The notes under the pieces were generated by a model. That model was not told the DNA's origin, searched no databases, and saw only the letters and a program-made list of their open reading frames with translations. The translations under genes and the position numbers were made by a program. 64,000 nucleotides of DNA from a virus. Where the stretch lies: the IMG/VR virus record IMGVR_UViG_3300003155_000003; one strand, written 5' to 3'. Below, piece by piece: positions 8,531 through 64,000 of this stretch. The first letter of the stretch is position 1. Each line of letters starts with the position of its first letter.

Positions 8531-8565
8531 ACCCGGTTTTATTTTACACAGTTCTAATTTCGAAT

Positions 8566-8600
8566 GGGATAGGGTTTTGAGAGGACCCTATCCCTATTTT
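8566..8600 (+). terminator. rho-independent terminator after the capsid gene
   Basis: GGGATAGGGT (8566-8575) pairs perfectly with ACCCTATCCC (8585-8594) across a 9-nt loop, followed by TATTTT. Confidence 0.8.
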
Positions 8601-8624
8601 AAACATCTAAAAACTTAGTAGATT

Positions 8625-19918: not shown

Positions 19919-19940
19919 TTAAGAACCGGACATTGCAAAG

Positions 19941-19982
19941 GGAAGGAGTGCATCTTACGAGGTGTACTCCTTCCTTCGTTTT
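19941..19982 (+). terminator. rho-independent terminator
   Basis: GGAAGGAGTGCA (19941-19952) pairs with TGTACTCCTTCC (19963-19974), giving 12 bp with one G-U pair, followed by TTCGTTTT. Confidence 0.75.
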
Positions 19983-20003
19983 AACACCTAAAAACTTAGA
20001 GAG

Positions 20004-20204
20004 ATGGAAAAAGAAAAACTAACCGAATATCAGATACAGATATCTTTGCCTGCTCCTAATCAAGAGATTGCTCAAGAAGTAGCAAACAAAGCCCAAGCCC
20101 TTGTAGACCAGTTCGGATACTATCAATTCTTAAACTTGGTAGACTTCATGCAGAAGAATCCAGGTGCAGTATCATTCGGTTTAAATTTAATAAATAGGAG
20201 GTAA
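20004..20204 (+). CDS. hypothetical small protein
   Basis: A 66-aa ORF preceded by the conserved leader CTAAAAACTTAG. Confidence 0.45.
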   Translation: MEKEKLTEYQIQISLPAPNQEIAQEVANKAQALVDQFGYYQFLNLVDFMQKNPGAVSFGLNLINRR

Positions 20205-25240: not shown

Positions 25241-25280
25241 GGGGTGGGATTCCTAGAAAGGGCTCACCCCTTTCTTGTTG
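25241..25280 (+). terminator. possible terminator hairpin after the tube gene
   Basis: GGGGTG (25241-25246) pairs with CACCCC (25265-25270) across a large loop, followed by TTTCTTGTTG. The structure is weaker than the other terminators. Confidence 0.35.
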
Positions 25281-26089: not shown

Positions 26090-26238
26090 ACCACCCGGGT
26101 ACATTTACTTATATATGTAGAGCTGAGATAGTCCTTGATTATCTCAGCTTTTTGCGTCTTCCGTATCGAGAAAGAAAAAGATTTAAAGACTTAGCCGATG
26201 AATATTATGATAACCTAAAAAAGATTAAAAATAAATGA
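25328..26238 (+). CDS. tail assembly chaperone, predicted -1 frameshift product (248 + 55 aa; gpGT analogue)
   Basis: After the slip, the -1 frame reads LPDGSVDHPGTFTYICRAEIVLDYLSFLRLPYRERKRFKDLADEYYDNLKKIKNK without a stop from 26071. It ends at the TGA at 26236-26238, which overlaps the tape-measure ATG (26235). This frame contains no ATG and is closed by a TGA at 26038-26040. Confidence 0.55.
26065..26071 (+). promoter_or_regulatory. -1 programmed ribosomal frameshift slippery site T_TTT_TTC
   Basis: The 0-frame codons are tcT TTT TTC (aa 246-248), which is a canonical X_XXY_YYZ heptamer in the correct phase. Confidence 0.6.
26121..26153 (+). terminator. perfect 10-bp hairpin plus T-tract inside the frameshift extension (terminator-like attenuator?)
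   Basis: AGCTGAGATA (26121-26130) pairs with TATCTCAGCT (26140-26149) across a 9-nt loop, followed by TTTT. Confidence 0.5.
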
Positions 26239-38896: not shown

Positions 38897-38962
38897 TAAT
38901 GTGTAACTACTTGTAACAATATCAATGAACTTTTAATTTATGAATTGCTTAACAATTGGGAT

Positions 38963-38994
38963 AGGGACGTTGGGAAACGCCCCTTTCTTTTTGT
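38963..38994 (+). terminator. terminator hairpin between convergent genes
   Basis: AGGGACGTT / AACGCCCCT form a stem with one mismatch and a GGGA loop, followed by TTTCTTTTTG. Confidence 0.5.
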
Positions 38995-38996
38995 GT

Positions 38997-39650
38997 TTAG
39001 TAATGCAGTTCTTTTTTGGCTTTCTCTTCCCAGTATTGAATATCCGCCTTTAGTTCACTAATATACTTGATAGAATTCTTAGTTCGAGGCATATCAAAGA
39101 ACTCTACTAAAAGTATATTGGTAATTCTCCCTGACTCAGGCATACGTTCTTTAATATAAGGTGGAGGAGTTACTAATACCTCGAATAACATATAAGCATC
39201 TGAAGACAGGTTAGCTTTCATATAATCATAAAGCAATTCCAGCATATCTTCTTTAGCTTTAGTTTCTTCCTCATCATCTTCGAGTTCCTTATCATTATCA
39301 AATAAATCCTCAAGCTTAAATAAGTTCTGATTATATTCTGCAACCTCTCCATAGGCAAATCTCAGAAGCTTATTTTTAAAAGTAGCTAGAGATGATAAGA
39401 TTCTTGCTTTAAGATGTTCTTCACTACAAGTACCGTAGTACTTATTAAAAACAAATAACATTTTATCCCAGAAATAAGAAGATATTATATCTGGAGTAAG
39501 GTTGAATCTTTTGTAATCTATCTGTTTGGTTAGGTTCCTAATAACAGGTTTACAAACTTTATACAACCTATTAAACATTGCTTCATCATAATCCTGCATA
39601 GGTTTTAATCTGTGCAGTTCTGAACCATTATTACCGTTGGTCTTTCTCAT
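38997..39650 (-). CDS. putative transcription regulator (sigma-factor-like, weak); only internal minus-strand gene
   Basis: A 217-aa ORF. FNRLYKVCKPVIRNLTKQI...PDIISSYFWDKMLFVFNKYY loosely resembles sigma-70 region 2. There is an acidic central linker, and the gene sits at the boundary between the late and early modules. Confidence 0.3.
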   Translation of the reverse strand: MRKTNGNNGSELHRLKPMQDYDEAMFNRLYKVCKPVIRNLTKQIDYKRFNLTPDIISSYFWDKMLFVFNKYYGTCSEEHLKARILSSLATFKNKLLRFAYGEVAEYNQNLFKLEDLFDNDKELEDDEEETKAKEDMLELLYDYMKANLSSDAYMLFEVLVTPPPYIKERMPESGRITNILLVEFFDMPRTKNSIKYISELKADIQYWEEKAKKELHY

Positions 39651-39674
39651 ATCTTTATAAATATTTCGTTAATG

Positions 39675-39682
39675 CAAATATA
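39675..39682 (-). promoter_or_regulatory. Bacteroidota-type -7 promoter element TAnnTTTG (TATATTTG on the minus strand)
   Basis: The + strand caaatata at 39675-39682 is the reverse complement of TATATTTG. It lies about 25 nt upstream of the minus-strand ATG (39650). No clear -33 TTTG was seen. Confidence 0.4.
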
Positions 39683-39828
39683 TAAATTTATTCATTATAT
39701 AATATAAGAATATTAAAATATTTCACCGAACGGCTGAGGATTAGAAGACTAGATACTGTGGACATGAGTTCAGAACTATATGGAGACTATCAAAATCTAT
39801 TAGTTATTATATTGCAATATATTAATGT

Positions 39829-50452: not shown

Positions 50453-50950
50453 ATGAGGGATGTATCTACTACTGGTGGGTATGTCCCTTTTTCTATTTAT
50501 AAATATATGAAGAAAAAACATGTATCATCTTTTCCAGTAATCTTGCGTAAAAGGTTCATGGATAATATACCTGGATTTTCTGGTTATTATGTTTCTAAAC
50601 GAGGTCGGGTATATACCAGAAGAAGAGTTGGATTAGGTAGAAAATCTAAAACTGGTGTTGGAGATTTAAACAGAGTGGGTTATTGGAGGGAATTAACTAG
50701 AATAACTAACCATAAGGGATATTATAGGTTAGTAATACAGGATGATTTCCGTAAAAGACATTATGTACAAGTGTCTAGGTTGGTAGCTTTAGCTTATATA
50801 CCTAACCCATTAAATAAACCATTTGTATGTCACAAAGATAATAATCCTAAGAATAATTTTTATAAAAATCTTTACTGGGGTACTCAATCTGAGAATATTC
50901 AACAATGTGTTAAAGATGGGAGACATCAATCATGCAAACTAGATATGTAA
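50453..50950 (+). CDS. HNH homing endonuclease (start moved to ATG 50453)
   Basis: IPGFSGYYVSKRGRVYT, SRLVALAYIPNPLN and CHKDNNPKNNFYKNLYWGTQSEN. The track ORF (50309) overlaps the upstream gene by 142 nt, and the in-frame ATG at 50453 removes that overlap. The 3' end overlaps the DNA polymerase start by 19 nt. Confidence 0.8.
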   Translation: MRDVSTTGGYVPFSIYKYMKKKHVSSFPVILRKRFMDNIPGFSGYYVSKRGRVYTRRRVGLGRKSKTGVGDLNRVGYWRELTRITNHKGYYRLVIQDDFRKRHYVQVSRLVALAYIPNPLNKPFVCHKDNNPKNNFYKNLYWGTQSENIQQCVKDGRHQSCKLDM

Positions 50951-57650: not shown

Positions 57651-58351
57651 AGAACGTAAAGATAATGTATGCAGGTCCAAGTGGAGTTGGAAAGACTACA
57701 CTTGCAGAGTTTACTCCTAAGTTGTATCATTATGGTGTATGTGAAGCTCAACCTATGAGATTCATTTCTGGTAGTGTATCCGAATTGATACCTAAAACCA
57801 AAGATATGACCCATAAGGAGATGTTGGAAAGGAATCCAAAGGATTTACTTCTTGAAGATTATCAGATTCTAAACCTTCGGAATAAGTTATTCAAAGATGA
57901 AGAGGATTTTGTAACAGATAGAAGCTATCTTGATTCGGCAGCTTACTTTTATTACAAACAATCCCAGAATATCCCAAAATGTGAAATGGAACACTTCTTC
58001 GAGATGTGCAAAATGTTACTCAATCAACAATGTACTCATCTAATCATCTTAGACTTCACTACTGCAATGATTAAAGAATGGGTAACAGAGGGTAATAATA
58101 AAAGGATTGAGAACAATTACTTTCAATTCTTGATATCTTCAATCATGGATAATATGCTGAATATTTGGGGATTCATTCCGGTAGAGGAAATTAACGTACT
58201 TTACAGAGGTTGGTTCAAAAGACAACCTCTTGAGTATGGTGCTACTAAAGGTACTATCAAATCTTGTTATGGAGAAACAAAAGTTATTCAGATACGAGAG
58301 GCTAATATAGATATCCGAAAAGAAATTATTCAAAGTTTTATCAATGAGTAA
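57647..58351 (+). CDS. P-loop deoxynucleoside/deoxynucleotide kinase-like protein
   Basis: Walker A MYAGPSGVGKTTLAE and a dNK-like DRSYLDSAAYFYY. The ORF is 234 aa. Confidence 0.5.
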   Translation: MKNVKIMYAGPSGVGKTTLAEFTPKLYHYGVCEAQPMRFISGSVSELIPKTKDMTHKEMLERNPKDLLLEDYQILNLRNKLFKDEEDFVTDRSYLDSAAYFYYKQSQNIPKCEMEHFFEMCKMLLNQQCTHLIILDFTTAMIKEWVTEGNNKRIENNYFQFLISSIMDNMLNIWGFIPVEEINVLYRGWFKRQPLEYGATKGTIKSCYGETKVIQIREANIDIRKEIIQSFINE

Positions 58352-58721
58352 AGAAGTAGTATTTATAGATAATATAAAGGGATATCCCGGGTATCATATT
58401 ACCCGGGATGGTTTATTGTATAGTAGGTACGATAATAAGGGTAGGCTTACTTCTAATACTTGGAAAATTCGTAAGCCTACGATATCTACTAATGGGTATG
58501 TAAAATATGGATTTTGTTTAAGGTTTAGAAAAATAAAAACCCAACTCTATGCCCATAGATTAGTAGCAGAAGCCTATATACCTAACCCCAATAATTTACC
58601 TGTAGTAATGCACCTGGACGATAATCCTAAGAATAATTCTGTAGAGAATCTTAAATGGGGAACTACTTTGGATAATATAAGGGATTGTATTAAGAAGGGT
58701 AGAAAGGTAGTAAGGAAGAAA
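58344..58721 (+). mobile_element. HNH homing-endonuclease module (N-terminal domain of the fusion ORF)
   Basis: It is a paralogue of the free-standing HNH ORFs at 42534 and 50453. It ends with ...NIRDCIKKGRKVVRKK and has no stop codon before the SbcD motif I. Confidence 0.7.
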
Positions 58722-59678
58722 ATAATATCCTATGTTATCTCGGATTTACATATTGGAGAGTATGGTAAATTTACTAGTAGAACTGAAACAGCTTTCCGAG
58801 TGTTAGTAAAGTTATCAAAACTCTGTGTAAAGAATGGAGTTCCCTTATTACACTGTGGAGATTTATTTCATAGTTCTGATAAGATATCTCCGGATTTATT
58901 ATGTAGGGTTATGGAAGTATTTAACAACTTATCTAAAAAAGACTTTATAATACTAACCATTTCAGGTAATCATGGTAGCCCGGTTACTCATAGAATAGGA
59001 GATAGAGAATTTATATCCTATGATAAAGCTATTGTTAAAGCTTTCCCTAACCTTTTCTATTCATTAGATTATGAACACTTTAGGCTAAATTATCATAAAC
59101 ATGTAGTTTATGGGATACCGTATATAGATAATAACCTCGGTTTATCGGAGTACATAAAGGGTATTAAACTTAATCCTAAAAAGAAAAATATTCTTTTATT
59201 ACATACTGATTATCCGGGAGCAAAAGATACCGATGGTAGAGAAATTGGTTCTGTAGAGAATCTTAATGTAAATACCCTAAATAAATTTGATTTGGTGTTA
59301 TGTGGACATATACATAAACCACAAAGATTATCAAAGAAGGTATATATGATAGGAGCCCCTTATCAACAAAGGAGAACTGATAAAGATTGTGATTTGGGAT
59401 ATTGGGAGTTATATTCGGATTTATCTATGAAGTTTATACCCTTGAAGGGTTTTCCAAAATTCATTGATGTAGAATCTGAAGATGAAATTAAGGATGATGG
59501 AAATTATTATACCGTTTTACCTAAGAAAACTAGTAACTTAGTAAATACTAACCATAAAATTACTAAGCAACTTTCTAAGAAAGCTCTAGCAAGGAAGTAT
59601 CTTAAGGAAAAGGGTATAACTGAGCAAGATAAGAAAGAACTACTGATTGACATACTTAAAAAAGCTGAATCATGTTAA
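58344..59678 (+). CDS. sbcD: HNH homing endonuclease fused in frame to SbcD/Mre11-type nuclease (T4 gp47 analogue)
   Basis: Residues 1 to about 120 are the HNH part: IKGYPGYHITRDGLLYS, HRLVAEAYIPNPNN and MHLDDNPKNNSVENLKWGTTLDN. From about residue 127 the sequence is a calcineurin-like phosphoesterase, with motifs VISDLHIGEYG, HCGDLFH, SGNHG, LLLHTDYPG and CGHIHKPQ. Confidence 0.75.
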   Translation: MSKEVVFIDNIKGYPGYHITRDGLLYSRYDNKGRLTSNTWKIRKPTISTNGYVKYGFCLRFRKIKTQLYAHRLVAEAYIPNPNNLPVVMHLDDNPKNNSVENLKWGTTLDNIRDCIKKGRKVVRKKIISYVISDLHIGEYGKFTSRTETAFRVLVKLSKLCVKNGVPLLHCGDLFHSSDKISPDLLCRVMEVFNNLSKKDFIILTISGNHGSPVTHRIGDREFISYDKAIVKAFPNLFYSLDYEHFRLNYHKHVVYGIPYIDNNLGLSEYIKGIKLNPKKKNILLLHTDYPGAKDTDGREIGSVENLNVNTLNKFDLVLCGHIHKPQRLSKKVYMIGAPYQQRRTDKDCDLGYWELYSDLSMKFIPLKGFPKFIDVESEDEIKDDGNYYTVLPKKTSNLVNTNHKITKQLSKKALARKYLKEKGITEQDKKELLIDILKKAESC

Positions 59679-62434
59679 CATTTACAACAATGAACGTAGT
59701 AGGATTCTGTTCAATAGAAAACCTACATATACCTTTAAACCCGAGTTGTACCATACTTATCAAGGCACCTAATGGGAAAGGTAAAGCACAACCTTTAGAA
59801 GAACCCGTTTTAACCGCTAATGGTTGGAAAAAGATGGGGGAATTAACTCTTAATGATAAAGTAATTAACCCAGTTACAGGTAAACCTATCAAGCTATTGG
59901 GTATTTATGATAGAGGTCTATTAGATACTTACAAAATAACCTTTTCTGATGGCTCATGTACTGAATGTGCTGGAGACCATTTATGGTCAGTATTCAAATC
60001 TGGTAAAGCTAAAGACAGACTAAGAACCTTAGATACCGAGACTTTACTAAAGGATTATAAGGTTGAGAATAAAACTGCTCCTGGTACTTTCAAGTATAGA
60101 TACTCAACTCCATTAACCGTACCAATTGATGGTAATTATACTAAATTACCAATACACCCCTACGTATTAGGGTTTATATTAGGCGATGGTTGTATTTCCG
60201 GTAATAGGCCTACAGTTAGAGTATCTACCAATAGAGAGGATTGGCCAGAGATAGTTGATAGATTAAGGTCATATTTGCCAGACCCAAACCTGGTTCATGA
60301 AGGTACAGATGTAAGAGGGGCTAAACACTTTAGGATTCATGGTTTAGGTAAAGAACTTAAGGATTTAGGATTAATTGGTTGTAAGTCTAAAGATAAGTTT
60401 ATACCAGAGTTATATTTGAAATCATCAATCGAGAATCGTAGATTATTATTAGCTGGTTTATTAGATACTGATGGATGTGTTGGTTCCAAAAAGAAAATCT
60501 CAAAGGTTTCTACGTATTCATCTAAGAGTGAGCACTTAAGAGATGGTATTAGCTATTTGGTAAGATCCCTTGGAGGCCTATCTACTAAAAATGAAAGTAC
60601 CCGGTTTAAGTATGGTAGGTATACTACTTCATATGTGTGTTCAATACGACTAACCTTTAACCCTTTTCTAAGGAAATATAAAACTAAATCCTATGGTGAG
60701 TTTACCAGGAGAAATAGAATGGTAAATACCATAAGAAATATTGAATATATAGGGAAAAAGGTATGTAGGTGCATTAAAGTAGATTCTTCAGAAGGCCTAT
60801 ATATTACCAGAGATTTTATAGTTACCCATAATTCAACTATCTTATCGGCATTGGTATGGGCAATATATGGGAAAAACCTAAAAGGTGTATCCGAAGTTAC
60901 TACCTGGGAAAAGATAAGACCTAAAGATTACCAGGGAGTAATGGTAGAGGTATTCTTTCAAAAGGGGGAACATATTTATAAAATTATCAGATGTCAGAAA
61001 TGTAATATAGTTCTTGAGGATGGAGCTAAAGGTAAAGATAGGCTTATCCTTATGAAAGATAATGAGGTAGTGAATATAAAAGGTAAGAATAAACTCCAGG
61101 ATGCTATTAATGCAGAACTTGGATTATCTTACACTTTATTCATGAACTCGATAATGTTTGGTCAAGGGATTAAGAGGTTAATACAAGAATCAAATGCCGA
61201 CAAGAAAAGGATATTTGAGGAAGTATTTGACCTTGAGTTCTTGAATATAGCTAAAGGAATAGCTATGCAGGATAAAAATAACCTGTTAGCTCAAGCAAAC
61301 GAGGCAGAACATCAATCCGAGTTACTTAAAAGGGAATTGGAAGCTAGTAAAGAGGCTTACTTTGATTTACGTGACAGGGAGAAAGGTTTTAAAGAGAAAA
61401 TCAAATCGGAACGTAGAGAGTTAAAGAAAGACAGGGAAAAGCTAACTAAGTTACTGATTGAAAAACAAAAGGCACTTAAGGATGAAGTAGAAAAAAGTCT
61501 TCAGGTAAAGATTAAAAAACATAGTACCTATGTAGATACTCTTAAGTCAAAGCTTAGGGATAATAGAATGGTTGCAGAAGGGGTTTCTTTACCAGATTTT
61601 GTAAAGAAACTTAAGATACAGTTAGATAAAGGCCACTACAAACGTGCAAAGGCGAGCGTAGATATTATTTACAATGCCCTGATTAATTCTGATAAGTTAC
61701 GAGAAGAGTATGAGGATGCTCTAGAAAGGTTAGGTGAGTTGAGGACTACAAATGAGAAGTATAAGAGACTTCAAAAAGACTGTGAAGACATTGCTTCAGA
61801 TATTGCATCTATTGACGAGGATTTGGAAAAGCTCAAACGAGAGAAGCTTAAGGTTATGTCTCCTAAGTATAAAGAGAAACTTAAGGAAATTAGAAAGAAT
61901 CTTCGTAAGGTAGATGAGGATTACCATAATAAGGAGTTAGAATTAAAAAACTACGATTGGTTACTTAATGACCCACTTGGTAATAATGGAATCAAGGCTT
62001 ATCTGTTTGATTCATCTCTGGGTATGTTAAATAGAACACTTGATAAATATTCTCAAGTATTGGGATTCAGGATTGAATTTGGTATAGATTTGGGTACTAT
62101 TAGAAAAGACTTTTATACTTTAATTGAAAGGGATGGGCAAATTATTGATTATGATGAACTATCGGGAGGAGAACGACAACTTTGTAATGTAGCAATGGCT
62201 TTTGCTATGAACGAATCTCTAACTGCTTCCAAAGGGATTAATCTAGCCTTCTTAGATGAAGTATTTGAATCTTTAAGCTCAGATAATGTAGAGGTGGTTA
62301 CATCCTTAATCAGGCATACTTTTGCAAATAAGACCCTATTTCTAATTACCCATTTAGATTCACTTCCATTATCTAATACTAAAATCCTGCAAGTTGAAAA
62401 GGTGAATGGCCTGAGTAGGTACCAACTACTATAA
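59672..62434 (+). CDS. sbcC: Rad50/SbcC-type ATPase (T4 gp46 analogue) interrupted by an intein
   Basis: The Walker A motif is split (APNGKGK / STILSA). Other motifs are Q-loop IMFGQG, a long coiled coil, signature LSGGERQL, Walker B LAFLDEVFESL and H-loop LFLITHLD. Confidence 0.85.
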   Translation: MLTFTTMNVVGFCSIENLHIPLNPSCTILIKAPNGKGKAQPLEEPVLTANGWKKMGELTLNDKVINPVTGKPIKLLGIYDRGLLDTYKITFSDGSCTECAGDHLWSVFKSGKAKDRLRTLDTETLLKDYKVENKTAPGTFKYRYSTPLTVPIDGNYTKLPIHPYVLGFILGDGCISGNRPTVRVSTNREDWPEIVDRLRSYLPDPNLVHEGTDVRGAKHFRIHGLGKELKDLGLIGCKSKDKFIPELYLKSSIENRRLLLAGLLDTDGCVGSKKKISKVSTYSSKSEHLRDGISYLVRSLGGLSTKNESTRFKYGRYTTSYVCSIRLTFNPFLRKYKTKSYGEFTRRNRMVNTIRNIEYIGKKVCRCIKVDSSEGLYITRDFIVTHNSTILSALVWAIYGKNLKGVSEVTTWEKIRPKDYQGVMVEVFFQKGEHIYKIIRCQKCNIVLEDGAKGKDRLILMKDNEVVNIKGKNKLQDAINAELGLSYTLFMNSIMFGQGIKRLIQESNADKKRIFEEVFDLEFLNIAKGIAMQDKNNLLAQANEAEHQSELLKRELEASKEAYFDLRDREKGFKEKIKSERRELKKDREKLTKLLIEKQKALKDEVEKSLQVKIKKHSTYVDTLKSKLRDNRMVAEGVSLPDFVKKLKIQLDKGHYKRAKASVDIIYNALINSDKLREEYEDALERLGELRTTNEKYKRLQKDCEDIASDIASIDEDLEKLKREKLKVMSPKYKEKLKEIRKNLRKVDEDYHNKELELKNYDWLLNDPLGNNGIKAYLFDSSLGMLNRTLDKYSQVLGFRIEFGIDLGTIRKDFYTLIERDGQIIDYDELSGGERQLCNVAMAFAMNESLTASKGINLAFLDEVFESLSSDNVEVVTSLIRHTFANKTLFLITHLDSLPLSNTKILQVEKVNGLSRYQLL
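59786..60832 (+). mobile_element. intein (349 aa, aa 39-387) with LAGLIDADG homing endonuclease; class-3-like W-C-T signature
   Basis: It starts AQPLEEPVLTANGWKKMGEL. Block B is AGDHLW, the LAGLIDADG motifs are LGFILGDGCISG and LLAGLLDTDGCVG, the block F Cys lies in VCRCIKV, and it ends FIVTHN followed by a Ser at +1. Confidence 0.8.
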
Positions 62435-62455
62435 TGATATAAAATATAATACATC

Positions 62456-62968
62456 ATGAATAGTAAGAAAAAAGGCTCAAGATTTGAATTAAAAATGTCT
62501 AAGTGGTTTACTAAATGGACCACTTATACTTGGAATAGAGTTCCAATGTCAGGGGCTTGGCATTCTAATAAGGATGCTGCTTCTGATATTACTTGTGTAG
62601 ATGAAAGACATGCTCACAGGTGTAAAATATCAGTTGAGTGTAAAAACTATAAGGAAATTAAATTTGAACACATTCTTTTAGGCAATAAGAGATGTGATAT
62701 ATTGAAATTCTGGGCTCAAGCTTCTAAGGATGCCAAAAGAGCAAATAAAGTACCTATCCTTTGCATGAGGTATAACTCGATGCCCGCAGAAGAGTTTTTC
62801 TTTGTTGTAGATTATAAACTCGGAAGTATCATAGTTCAGTATATTACTAAGTCAATGTATATCCAAGTACAGGAGAATACTCTTATGGTATTTATGGCTA
62901 GTGAGGTATTAAACGTGCCTTACAAATTAATTCATAAGCAAGCTAAGTTAATTCTTAAAAACTCCTAA
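62456..62968 (+). CDS. PD-(D/E)xK nuclease, Holliday-junction-resolvase-like
   Basis: KKGSRFELKMSKWF...VPMSGAW...ASDITCVD...ISVECKNYKE follows the G..fE ... SG ... D ... E.K pattern of archaeal Hjc/RecU-type resolvases. Confidence 0.5.
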   Translation: MNSKKKGSRFELKMSKWFTKWTTYTWNRVPMSGAWHSNKDAASDITCVDERHAHRCKISVECKNYKEIKFEHILLGNKRCDILKFWAQASKDAKRANKVPILCMRYNSMPAEEFFFVVDYKLGSIIVQYITKSMYIQVQENTLMVFMASEVLNVPYKLIHKQAKLILKNS

Positions 62969-62971
62969 ACC

Positions 62972-63697
62972 ATGAAGAAACGTACCCCATATTCATATTG
63001 TATCTTCTACATCGAAAGAAAGTACTCCGATAGGATTAATCAAGAACTTAAAGAAAAGGGGTATGACCAACTTAAAGCCATTATCCCTACAGTAAATGTA
63101 TTGAAGAAAACTATAAAAGGTAAGATGGTATTTGAAGAAGTACCGGTATTATTCAATTATGGTTTTATGAGAATGCCTACAGAGTTTGCTTTCTCTAGAC
63201 CTTTTCTTAATAAATTAAAGAGAAACATATCGGGCATTAGAACTTGGTTAAAGAATACAGAGACAATGCACCAAAGGAAAAAGAAAATCAGAATCGATAA
63301 CTCTGAAGACTTTGATGATTTTTCTTTAGTAGCTACATGTTCAAGAAAGGATGTTAGAAGGTTTAAGAGAATGGCAAAAGAGAATAAGAAATTTTCGGTA
63401 GATGACTTGATGAATGTCTCAATAGGAGACTACATCGTACTAAAGGGTTATCCTTATGAGGGTATTGATGCTACGGTATTAGAGGTAGATTACATCAATA
63501 AAATGGTAAAGATGCTTTTATATCCTGAAATGGGTAGAATGGAGATTTGGTTACCCTTCGATAATGTTATCTATAGCGTATATCAAAATTACGACCCAGA
63601 TAAATTATATGCCAACTCTCAAGAGTTTGACCCAAATCAAATAACCTGTGAACAAATCGATAGAGTACTGAATATAAAATCAAGGAAAAGGAAATGA
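62972..63697 (+). CDS. NusG-like transcription elongation/antitermination factor (NGN + KOW)
   Basis: NGN region: YCIFYIERKYSDRINQELKEKGYDQLKAIIPTVNVLKKTIKGKMVFEEVPVLFNYGFMRMP, compared with E. coli NusG WYVVQAFSGFE...[32 protein letters not shown]. KOW region: IGDYIVLKGYPYEGIDATVLEVDYINKMVKMLL, compared with [33 protein letters not shown]. Confidence 0.6.
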   Translation: MKKRTPYSYCIFYIERKYSDRINQELKEKGYDQLKAIIPTVNVLKKTIKGKMVFEEVPVLFNYGFMRMPTEFAFSRPFLNKLKRNISGIRTWLKNTETMHQRKKKIRIDNSEDFDDFSLVATCSRKDVRRFKRMAKENKKFSVDDLMNVSIGDYIVLKGYPYEGIDATVLEVDYINKMVKMLLYPEMGRMEIWLPFDNVIYSVYQNYDPDKLYANSQEFDPNQITCEQIDRVLNIKSRKRK

Positions 63698-64000
63698 ACG
63701 AGGCTCAGAAAAAAGCATGGGACTGTCTAAAAGATTTAGAACAGAAATCCTTATTCCTTCAATTATCAGAAAACAAATCCTCATGGGAAGCTGGTGAAAT
63801 TTTAAAATTGTCACATTACAAGTATCTAGAAGTCCGGGAAAGGTCAGAAAAGTTTTTTAGATTATTCTCGGACTTTTTTGAGAAACACACTTCTCTATTT
63901 CGACCAGATTGTCCATGTGAGAGAAGTTTTCAGGATTATATTGAAGGTTGTCTAGAAAGAAGGTTAACTAGAAAAGAAGCAATGATTTACATTGGTGATT
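63694..64000 (+). CDS. hypothetical protein, 5' part only (runs off the window)
   Basis: The ATG at 63694 overlaps the upstream TGA (ATGA). The frame stays open to the window end (MNEAQKKAWDCLKDLEQKSLFLQLSENKSSWEAGEILKLSHYKYLEVRERSEKFF...). A possible HTH is only a guess. Confidence 0.45.
   Translation, partial: MNEAQKKAWDCLKDLEQKSLFLQLSENKSSWEAGEILKLSHYKYLEVRERSEKFFRLFSDFFEKHTSLFRPDCPCERSFQDYIEGCLERRLTRKEAMIYIGD

Follow-up and report, generated by a model that had tools for sequence, protein, structure and literature searches.

A highly diverged NusG-like protein encoded by a gut phage and its possible role in antitermination

We analysed the open reading frame (ORF) at 62972-63697 (+) of a 64,000-nt stretch of virus DNA, IMG/VR record IMGVR_UViG_3300003155_000003 (the window, in whose numbering positions are given unless another contig is named). 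The ORF runs from an ATG at 62972 to a TGA at 63697 and encodes 241 aa, exactly as described in an earlier note written from the sequence alone. That note read the product as a phage-encoded NusG-like factor with an NGN and a KOW domain, and suggested that it could serve as an antitermination switch for late transcription. Fold and profile evidence bears out the identification: the product is almost certainly a highly diverged, phage-specific NGN-KOW member of the NusG/Spt5 superfamily. The best-supported reading of its function is that of an RfaH/UpxY/LoaP-like elongation factor with a role in antitermination, to which we assign a probability of about 0.55. We describe here the fold, the homology, the synteny and the distribution of promoters and terminators, from which we infer binding to RNA polymerase (RNAP), antitermination, targets and timing.

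Fold and family of the NusG-like protein

Direct family scans of the window protein are nearly empty, so its identification required family alignments and a structure model. The AlphaFold2 (AF2) model was built on a 22-sequence alignment. Its top 50 Foldseek matches in the PDB were solely NusG, RfaH or Spt5 chains (best E 5e-9), which answers the structure-prediction check proposed in the earlier note in favour of the NusG-like fold, and the alignments of about 200 columns cover both domains. Isolated NGN domains align to the model with a root-mean-square deviation (rmsd) of 3.6-5.8 Å, that of RfaH at about 4 Å over 86-91 columns. The predicted local distance difference test score (pLDDT) is 70-92 for residues 1-95, falls below 50 for the disordered residues 97-117, and is 65-77 for the beta-rich residues 154-195.

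We further characterized the relationship with an alignment of 70 diverse family members (A2, identity down to 21%). The 70-member profile aligned by hhalign with E. coli NusG (E 3.4e-6, 139 columns, residues 34-199) and with RfaH (E 9.3e-6, 132 columns). Both alignments are collinear, with NGN followed by KOW, which confirms the collinearity with bacterial NusG that had been claimed. Compared with PDB sequences, the family profile matched Spt5 and NusG KOW chains (E 1.9e-4 to 1e-2) and the RfaH NGN domain (E 0.05). The peptides on which the original identification was based (YCIFYIERKY, IIPTVNVLKKTIKGKMVFEEVPVLFNYGFMRMP and IGDYIVLKGYPYEGIDATVLEVDYINKMVKMLL) are all present in the ORF, and the E. 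coli strings set beside them are those of the true nusG product.

A check against Pfam profiles for the two domains had also been proposed. It gave no match for the window protein itself, whereas 20 of the 70 relatives in A2 match Pfam NusG (PF02357; best E 9e-7). Among NCBIfam models, UpxY is matched by 53/70 relatives (best E 1.6e-11), nusG by 30/70, LoaP by 27/70, RfaH by 20/70 and Spt5 by 19/70, and the matches to UpxY, LoaP and NusG are near full length (one of them pairs residues 8-173 with positions 1-147 of a 164-position model). In PHROGs, 35/70 relatives match phrog_6386, 'transcription antiterminator', which is also the only PHROG found with the window protein, at a marginal E of 0.042. 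Judged by these matches, the nearest profiles are those of the specialised bacterial paralogues UpxY, LoaP and RfaH, and the comparison with these proteins drawn in the earlier note is apt. Since the protein fails the curated thresholds of NusG, RfaH, UpxY and LoaP, we take it to be assignable to the NusG/Spt5 superfamily only.

One other name was considered and rejected. For 'DNA-directed RNA polymerase subunit alpha', the name in nr/UniProt, there was no RpoA chain among the PDB sequence or fold matches; a weak match to 'RNAP subunit F' (E 0.058) was seen in 1/70 members. The UniProt entry A0A8S5LRJ5, 99% identical to the window protein, carries the alpha-subunit name and looks like a mis-annotation.

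A homology search yielded 253 relatives, mostly without a name; the Joint Genome Institute (JGI) names three clusters 'transcription antitermination factor NusG', and nr has one as 'RNA polymerase subunit alpha'. When 1.84 billion cluster representatives were searched exhaustively with the profile, 197 were returned at E<=1e-3, all of about 215-260 aa. Three single-protein IMG/VR scans for distant family members gave no matches, and in a tblastn search of 50,697 phage records with three members the only matches were two metagenomic records without annotation. Among 185,579 bacterial species genomes there were only two family matches, a contig (L252) of a metagenome-assembled genome binned as Collinsella and a 598-bp Streptomyces contig (L253), which are probably contamination or mis-binned phage DNA; no prophage copy was found in these genomes. 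At the level of these searches the family is small and closed, and does not merge with cellular NusG.

The protein is made up of the following parts, as placed by the AF2 model and the alignments:

62987..63256 (+), residues 6-95: NGN core, strand-helix-strand-hairpin-strand, with the RfaH NGN fold (pLDDT 70-92; hhalign)
63257..63325 (+), residues 96-118: disordered, clade-specific insertion (pLDDT <50 for 97-117)
63326..63412 (+), residues 119-147: last NGN helix and linker (helix 125-140 in the AF2 model; hhalign)
63413..63571 (+), residues 148-200: KOW domain (PDB profile matches to Spt5/NusG KOW; predicted strands 154-195)
63572..63694 (+), residues 201-241: C-terminal extension, conserved in the window protein's own clade (alignment A1), low pLDDT

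The NGN core has a net charge of +9 and holds the most conserved segment of the family, the invariant P58-x-LFNYGF65, which hhalign aligns with P49-LFPNYLF56 of RfaH. We take this P-LF-NY-F segment of RfaH to be the strand that binds the clamp helices, following the RfaH/NusG literature. The basic insertion described in the earlier note exists and is predicted to be disordered, but hhalign places it inside the C-terminal part of the NGN domain, before the last helix, and not between the two domains. It consists of a basic stretch followed by the acidic-aromatic motif R-I-D-N-x-E-D-F-D-D-F-S. Residues R107, N110, D115, D116, F117 and S118 of the insertion are invariant in A1, and the motif is absent or variable in distant clades; it may be a linear motif that binds a partner. 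Further along, 'VATCSRKDVRRF' in the last NGN helix and linker aligns with 'PAPISDKEVDAI' of NusG (hhalign). The KOW domain carries G152-D-Y-x-V-L-K-G-Y-P-Y-E-G and has a net charge of -4, compared with -3 for the E. coli NusG KOW and a family median of 0. The C-terminal extension, with a conserved YSVY-NYDPDKLYAN...DPNxIT and a basic tail at its end, has no counterpart in NusG or RfaH, and the alignments to both stop at about residue 199.

Genome context and the downstream partner

An identical NusG-like protein is found on 84-87-kb contigs. The gene order of the window and the remaining genome, with a structural block that includes a contractile-tail module, a DnaB/DnaG/PolA replication module and about 20 kb of unknown ORFs, fits the description of the 'Flandersviridae'. 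These are colinear phages of ~85 kb, for which CRISPR spacers indicate Bacteroides and Parabacteroides hosts and whose detection frequency in human gut viromes is reported to be close to that of crAss-like phages (PMC8008677); the paper that describes them does not mention NusG. The remainder of the genome is represented by two near-identical contigs, L003 and L006, and contains the rest of the gene downstream of the NusG-like gene (the partner gene), ~16 kb of small unknown ORFs, a short minus-strand cluster, a muramidase and a minus-strand HNH endonuclease. The features around the NusG-like gene are:

1493-38896: structural train, with TerL, portal, protease, capsid, a 2072-aa fibre, tape measure, baseplate and tail fibre
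39829-62968: replication/recombination train (24 kb), with DnaB, primase, helicase, thymidylate synthase, PolA, GroES-like, gp32-like, UvsX/RecA, 5'-3' exonuclease, SbcD, SbcC and PDDEXK nuclease
62456..62968 (+): PDDEXK_15/RusA-like nuclease, a conserved left neighbour that closes the SbcD-SbcC recombination block
63694..64000 (+): 5' part of the partner gene, which runs off the window and continues at L003 10723-11706; 327 aa in near-identical genomes

The co-directional late train of roughly 37 kb described in the earlier note is correctly delimited as 1493-38896. The NusG-like gene closes the replication/recombination module on its 3' side and does not head a target operon; its start codon follows the stop of the PDDEXK nuclease gene by 3 nt. 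Its stop codon and the start codon of the partner gene share an ATGA at 63694, an arrangement that indicates translational coupling of the two genes in the window. Distant members P0141 (34% identity) and P0269 (23%) keep the same order, SbcD-SbcC-PDDEXK_15-NusG-like-partner. Because this order is kept even at 23% identity, the NusG-like gene is, judging from synteny, an old core gene of ~85-kb 'Flandersviridae'-like phages.

Homology between the partner proteins extends across lineages (E 4e-33 and 2e-40, 30-32% identity), and each of the partner's 821 relatives is either without a name or 'hypothetical'. The partner falls into no family of Pfam, NCBIfam or PHROGs, and its sequence-search matches to designed repeat proteins are spurious. 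The AF2 model of the partner (pLDDT 80) has an N-terminal part of ~60 residues that resembles the helix-turn-helix of sigma-70 region 4. Its top 25 Foldseek matches are almost all sigma factor region 4, with target-normalised template modelling (TM) scores of ~0.6-0.83 for isolated region-4 chains and a best rmsd of 1.0-1.5 Å. The shortness of the match leaves E-values of only ~0.7-2, and we regard the sigma-4-like fold as a lead, not a finding. This conserved partner, which does not appear in the earlier note, could supply promoter specificity in place of a late switch by the NusG-like protein.

The position of the gene bears on whether the protein acts on RNAP at all. It lies invariably at the end of the recombination block, near SbcCD, resolvase-like nuclease, UvsX and gp32-like genes, which might suggest that an NGN-KOW scaffold had been recruited to DNA replication or recombination, and the DFDDF sequence of the insertion resembles what we take to be the acidic protein-binding tails of single-strand-binding proteins. 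However, conservation in the family is highest in the segment aligned with the RNAP-binding strand of RfaH, the protein encoded next downstream resembles a transcription factor, and we know of no NGN domain with a function outside RNAP. A role of this kind is very unlikely.

A second alternative arises from the affinity to UpxY. As a decoy or competitor at the NusG/UpxY site, the protein could shut down or reprogramme host transcription, for example that of UpxY-dependent capsule operons. The UpxY model is the one matched by most relatives, the hosts are Bacteroides and Parabacteroides (PMC8008677), and UpxY-dependent capsule operons determine phage susceptibility (PMC12118408; PMC11685472). 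However, the scores are far under the 100-bit UpxY cutoff, the window protein has no UpxY match, and there is no UpxZ-like neighbour. An apparently virulent phage, with no sign of a prophage state, would gain little from a capsule change after infection, and the strict conservation of the gene's place among replication genes, as a core gene, points to a part in the programme of the phage itself. We consider a host-directed function quite unlikely.

Transcription signals and the antitermination reading

A scan for sigma-70-type promoters was uninformative, with counts below shuffle expectation, as it should be for a Bacteroidota host, and we searched instead for TAnnTTTG, the Bacteroides -7 element. 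Perfect Bacteroides-type promoters (TTTG...TAnnTTTG), at least ten in number, occur in the intergenic gaps of the ~20-kb early region (L003 11707-18144, L006 406-5121). They often read TTATTCTTATATTTGCA, most have the upstream TTTG, and the first lies directly after the partner gene. This region is built of promoter-gene-terminator units. The 64-kb window contains 39 plus-strand TAnnTTTG matches, none of them truly intergenic, and the 37-kb and 24-kb trains are without a perfect host-type promoter. This distribution marks the ~20-kb region as early and dependent on host sigma, and also supports a Bacteroidota host.

Strong hairpins, scored by folding energy against shuffled sequence, are found at the following positions, all in intergenic gaps and all followed by T-rich tracts:

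8562-8599 (+): hairpin and T-tract directly after the major capsid gene; -20.5 kcal/mol, z -4.0
19939-19976 (+): hairpin and T-tract, intergenic, inside the late train; -26.8 kcal/mol, z -5.9
26115-26157 (+): hairpin and T-tract, intergenic, before the tape-measure gene; -21.4 kcal/mol, z -5.5
50455-50489 (+): hairpin and T-tract upstream of the NusG-like gene, within the replication train; -20.6 kcal/mol, z -5.1

Three of the hairpins listed in the earlier note (8566, 19941, 26121) are therefore strong, while the fourth, listed at 25241 and found at ~25255, is weak (z -0.4); the hairpin at 50455-50489 is an addition. Across 23 sequence variants the hairpin after the capsid gene is retained, with compensatory changes and one inversion of the loop. 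We regard the four strong hairpins as candidate internal terminators and as putative targets of read-through.

No RNAP-like protein was detected among the window ORFs scanned with PHROG and further profiles, a few large tail-module ORFs being without any match. Two long trains with internal terminators and without perfect host promoters would need either processive antitermination or a phage-specific promoter factor. The antitermination role is best supported because no phage RNAP was found, promoters cluster in the early region, and the trains contain strong, conserved hairpins; in these respects the genome context suits the processive read-through envisaged in the earlier note. Characterised NusG paralogues, namely RfaH, UpxY and LoaP, promote read-through of long, horizontally acquired operons (PMC7819879; PMC6391919; PMC11685472).

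In the mechanism that we propose, the NusG-like gene would be expressed from the replication-module transcript of an ~85-kb phage without a recognisable RNAP. The basic NGN domain would dock on the β' clamp helices of the host elongation complex via the hydrophobic P-x-LFNYGF segment, and docking would exclude host NusG and hence NusG-assisted Rho termination. The modified polymerase would resist pausing and hairpin terminators, so that transcription could run the full length of the 24-kb replication train and the 37-kb structural train. A partner, for which ribosomal protein S10 and the adjacent sigma-4-like protein are candidates, may be tethered by the KOW domain, the C-terminal extension and the acidic-aromatic insertion.

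Several observations weigh against this reading. At the level of the protein, no Pfam match, to PF02357, PF00467 or any other model, was obtained with the window protein even at E<=10. The NCBIfam RfaH model is matched weakly (residues 10-71, E 0.006, 16.5 bits, the cutoff being 124 bits), and the relatives score ~18-31 bits where the NCBIfam cutoffs, including that of TIGR00922, are 100-150 bits. The AF2 model is of moderate quality (mean pLDDT 66; predicted TM score, pTM, 0.50). Residues K10, H20, R23 and Q24 of RfaH, which we take from the RfaH-ops structure 5OND to be its contacts with ops DNA, correspond to E15, E25, E28 and K29 here (hhalign) and are not conserved. At the level of the genome, a near-consensus promoter, TATATTG-CAAT, lies 17 nt before dnaB, just ahead of the replication train. 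Terminator-like matches per 20 kb are at shuffle level, with 17, 13 and 16 found and 13.5, 10.7 and 9.1 expected, and phage-specific promoters downstream of each hairpin, which may exist, would make read-through unnecessary.

The search for recruitment elements points in the same direction. No Rfam family, JUMPstart included, reached threshold in the window and 42 kb of the remaining genome, and in the intergenic gaps we noticed no motif resembling GGCGGTAGnnTG or YGCGNAGCR, for which no systematic degenerate search was made. The ops-like motif that the earlier note proposed to look for in phage leaders thus yielded no recruitment element. One candidate was the 12-mer CTAAAAACTTAG, which has exactly two copies, at 8607 and 19988 (spans 8600-8624 and 19981-20004), each closely behind a strong hairpin and 6-7 nt ahead of a start codon. 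Its sequence does not change across 23 variants of the post-capsid spacer, while the hairpin varies. Allowing two mismatches, it occurs at chance level (14 observed, 16 expected), and it is similar to the A-rich 'TTTAAAAnTAGACGTT-ATG' leaders of early genes. Because of this chance-level count, its spacing before start codons and its likeness to those leaders, we rejected CTAAAAACTTAG as an ops-like recruitment site and read it as a translation leader.

Expression alongside the replication (middle) genes would be compatible with the late switch proposed earlier, but the gene does not head a target operon, an ops-like element is absent from the gaps inspected, and the RfaH ops contacts are not conserved.

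Some NusG proteins raise pausing or termination instead of relieving it, a further point against antitermination. Class-2 UpxY is pro-pausing at its own sites (PMC11685472), and NusG of several bacteria is reported to stimulate pausing or intrinsic termination. By analogy, the phage protein could be a replacement housekeeping NusG that insulates transcription units by pausing or termination, or tethers ribosomes through KOW-S10 contacts in transcription-translation coupling. The KOW domain is acidic like that of E. coli NusG and not basic like that of LoaP, and the early region has the promoter-gene-terminator layout that such a factor would serve. However, a pro-termination activity would be counterproductive inside trains of 24-37 kb without internal host-type promoters, and the profile affinity lies with antiterminator paralogues. 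We judge this rather improbable.

The other explanation of the trains is a phage-specific promoter factor, and here the partner becomes relevant. The NusG-like protein and its sigma-4-like neighbour could form a promoter-plus-elongation module, a temporal switch with control at initiation, which overlaps with the antitermination reading. The partner would send host RNAP to middle or late promoters of the phage, and once the promoter has been escaped the NusG-like protein would occupy the clamp-helix site. The partner is adjacent in every lineage examined and homologous at 30-32% identity, the ATGA overlap couples both genes in the window, the N-terminal ~60 residues of the partner superpose on sigma region 4, and neither train has a perfect host promoter. 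The β' clamp-helix site is used by both sigma region 2 and the NusG NGN domain, which would suit such a hand-over. However, the partner's Foldseek E of ~0.7-2 is not significant by that measure, it has no matching sequence family, no candidate phage-specific promoter motif was identified, and the coupling is not universal, with a 115-nt AT-rich spacer between the two genes in a distant locus (L088). As a module of this kind the pair is a tentative proposal that we hold to be unlikely. The same doubt applies to its most specific form, a two-part takeover in which the part of the Bacteroides primary sigma factor that recognises -33 would be replaced or remodelled by the partner, directing transcription to middle and late promoters, and the NusG paralogue would then take the clamp-helix site, lock out host NusG and Rho, and keep the polymerase going over tens of kilobases. 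If true, this would be a complete phage-encoded hand-off from initiation to elongation in a highly prevalent human gut phage family, a previously undescribed system.

For Flandersviridae-like phages, which are prevalent in the human gut, a NusG paralogue that is a core gene together with its sigma-4-like neighbour provides a testable handle on the expression programme, and assays with recombinant B. fragilis RNAP exist (PMC11685472). If the antitermination role holds, it would extend the idea of the specialised NusG factor from chromosomes and plasmids to a virulent phage. The family also illustrates that specialised NusG factors can diverge past the reach of Pfam.

Comparison with known systems and other features of the genome

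UpxY shares with the phage protein the NGN plus KOW architecture, the host phylum and a conserved second gene that follows. It is the profile most often matched among the relatives (53/70), near full length, and the basic NGN of the phage protein fits the DNA contacts described for UpxY (PMC11685472). In contrast, the UpxY model NF033644 has a cutoff of 100 bits, the relatives reach 18-31 bits, and the window protein has no match at E<=0.1. UpxY heads a capsule operon behind a leader with an ops site, whereas the phage gene is at the 3' end of a replication/recombination module and is followed by a 327-aa sigma-4-like protein, not UpxZ. The phage protein also has an extra insertion of ~23 residues and a C-terminal extension of ~40 residues. 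With E. coli RfaH and the plasmid and prophage rfaH-like genes (ActX, TraB), it has the fold and the conserved P-LF-NY-F strand in common. It differs in that the ops contacts are not conserved, no ops or JUMPstart element was found, and the score is below the cutoff; its KOW domain is predicted to be beta (pLDDT 65-77, pTM 0.50), with no sign, at this low confidence, of an autoinhibited alpha-hairpin. LoaP resembles it in that relatives (27/70) match nearly the full model and in the presumed role, read-through of intrinsic terminators in long operons. The relatives score 20-25 bits, far from the 125-bit cutoff of NF033641, and no leader hairpin element was identified here. The acidic KOW (-4) is also unlike those of LoaP and class-2 UpxY, described as positively charged, and the LoaP KOW has been proposed to bind an RNA hairpin (PMC11685472).

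NusG-family genes are encoded by other phages. With E. coli NusG as the query, tblastn against the phage collection found 46 records, including Synechococcus and Microcystis phages and uncultured phages of 636-735 kb with annotated nusG. A few phage proteins named NusG or RfaH in BFVD match the AF2 model at E 1e-7 to 1e-9. The nusG products of cyanophages and huge phages are 34-59% identical to E. coli NusG, whereas the present family is undetectable by BLAST or Pfam from the window protein and is closed, with its own insertion, C-terminal extension and partner.

Lambda N recruits host NusG rather than replacing it. Lambda N and Q, P23-45 gp39 and the HK022 put RNA are similar in that a phage product modifies host RNAP for terminator read-through into later genes (PMC3351154; PMC9378689). 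These are unrelated proteins or RNAs, and no nut-, qut- or put-like element was found here. Reviews place the specialised NusG paralogues on chromosomes and plasmids (PMC6391919; PMC7819879), and rfaH-like genes on prophages have been mentioned (PMC7593976). In the literature searched we found no functionally characterised phage-encoded NusG paralogue. This agrees with the earlier note, in which no such mechanism was known for these phages, with the reservation that nusG- and rfaH-like genes of phages and prophages have already been annotated or mentioned. Phage NusG-like genes are thus already known; what is new is a highly diverged family with its own insertion, extension and partner that is core to prevalent gut phages.

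The other features of the window are:

first ~200 nt (-): end of an HNH endonuclease gene
202-1218: DNA methyltransferase
about 38952-38990: hairpin that ends the structural train
38997-39650 (-): ORF of 217 aa without a family match, the window's sole minus-strand ORF

The minus-strand ORF 38997-39650 is faced by a TATATTTG promoter and sits between the terminator at the end of the structural train and an AT-rich gap (39651-39828) before dnaB; it may encode a regulator at the boundary of the two trains. A tRNA scan found none. Two stretches of the early region, L006 3176-4058 and 4416-5121, are non-coding over 0.9 and 0.7 kb and rich in short repeats of the CCTAA/GGCC type. Neither has an Rfam match, and they could be a replication origin or non-coding RNA genes.

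Two genes of the recombination block are longer than in their relatives. The SbcC-like ORF 59672-62434 encodes 920 aa here and 571 aa in near-identical genomes, and the extra N-terminal ~350 aa give LAGLIDADG and intein-like cross-matches, so that an intein has probably been inserted into the SbcC-like ATPase. The SbcD-like ORF 58344-59678 encodes 444 aa here and 321-322 aa in relatives. Its extra N-terminal ~125 aa match HNH endonucleases, and the SbcD-like gene appears to have gained a homing endonuclease at its 5' end, by fusion or by insertion.

The 274-nt gap 1219-1492 before the packaging genes contains two palindromes, GAATAGCTAAAGCTATTC, which has TCTCATTCGAA as a direct repeat on its flanks, and the imperfect CTAACTAG...TTAGTTAG. 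Across relatives, the alignment length of this leader is too variable to interpret. Several IMG/VR contigs start 160-200 nt upstream of the 214-aa gene, and the gap may contain a packaging site or a late regulatory region.

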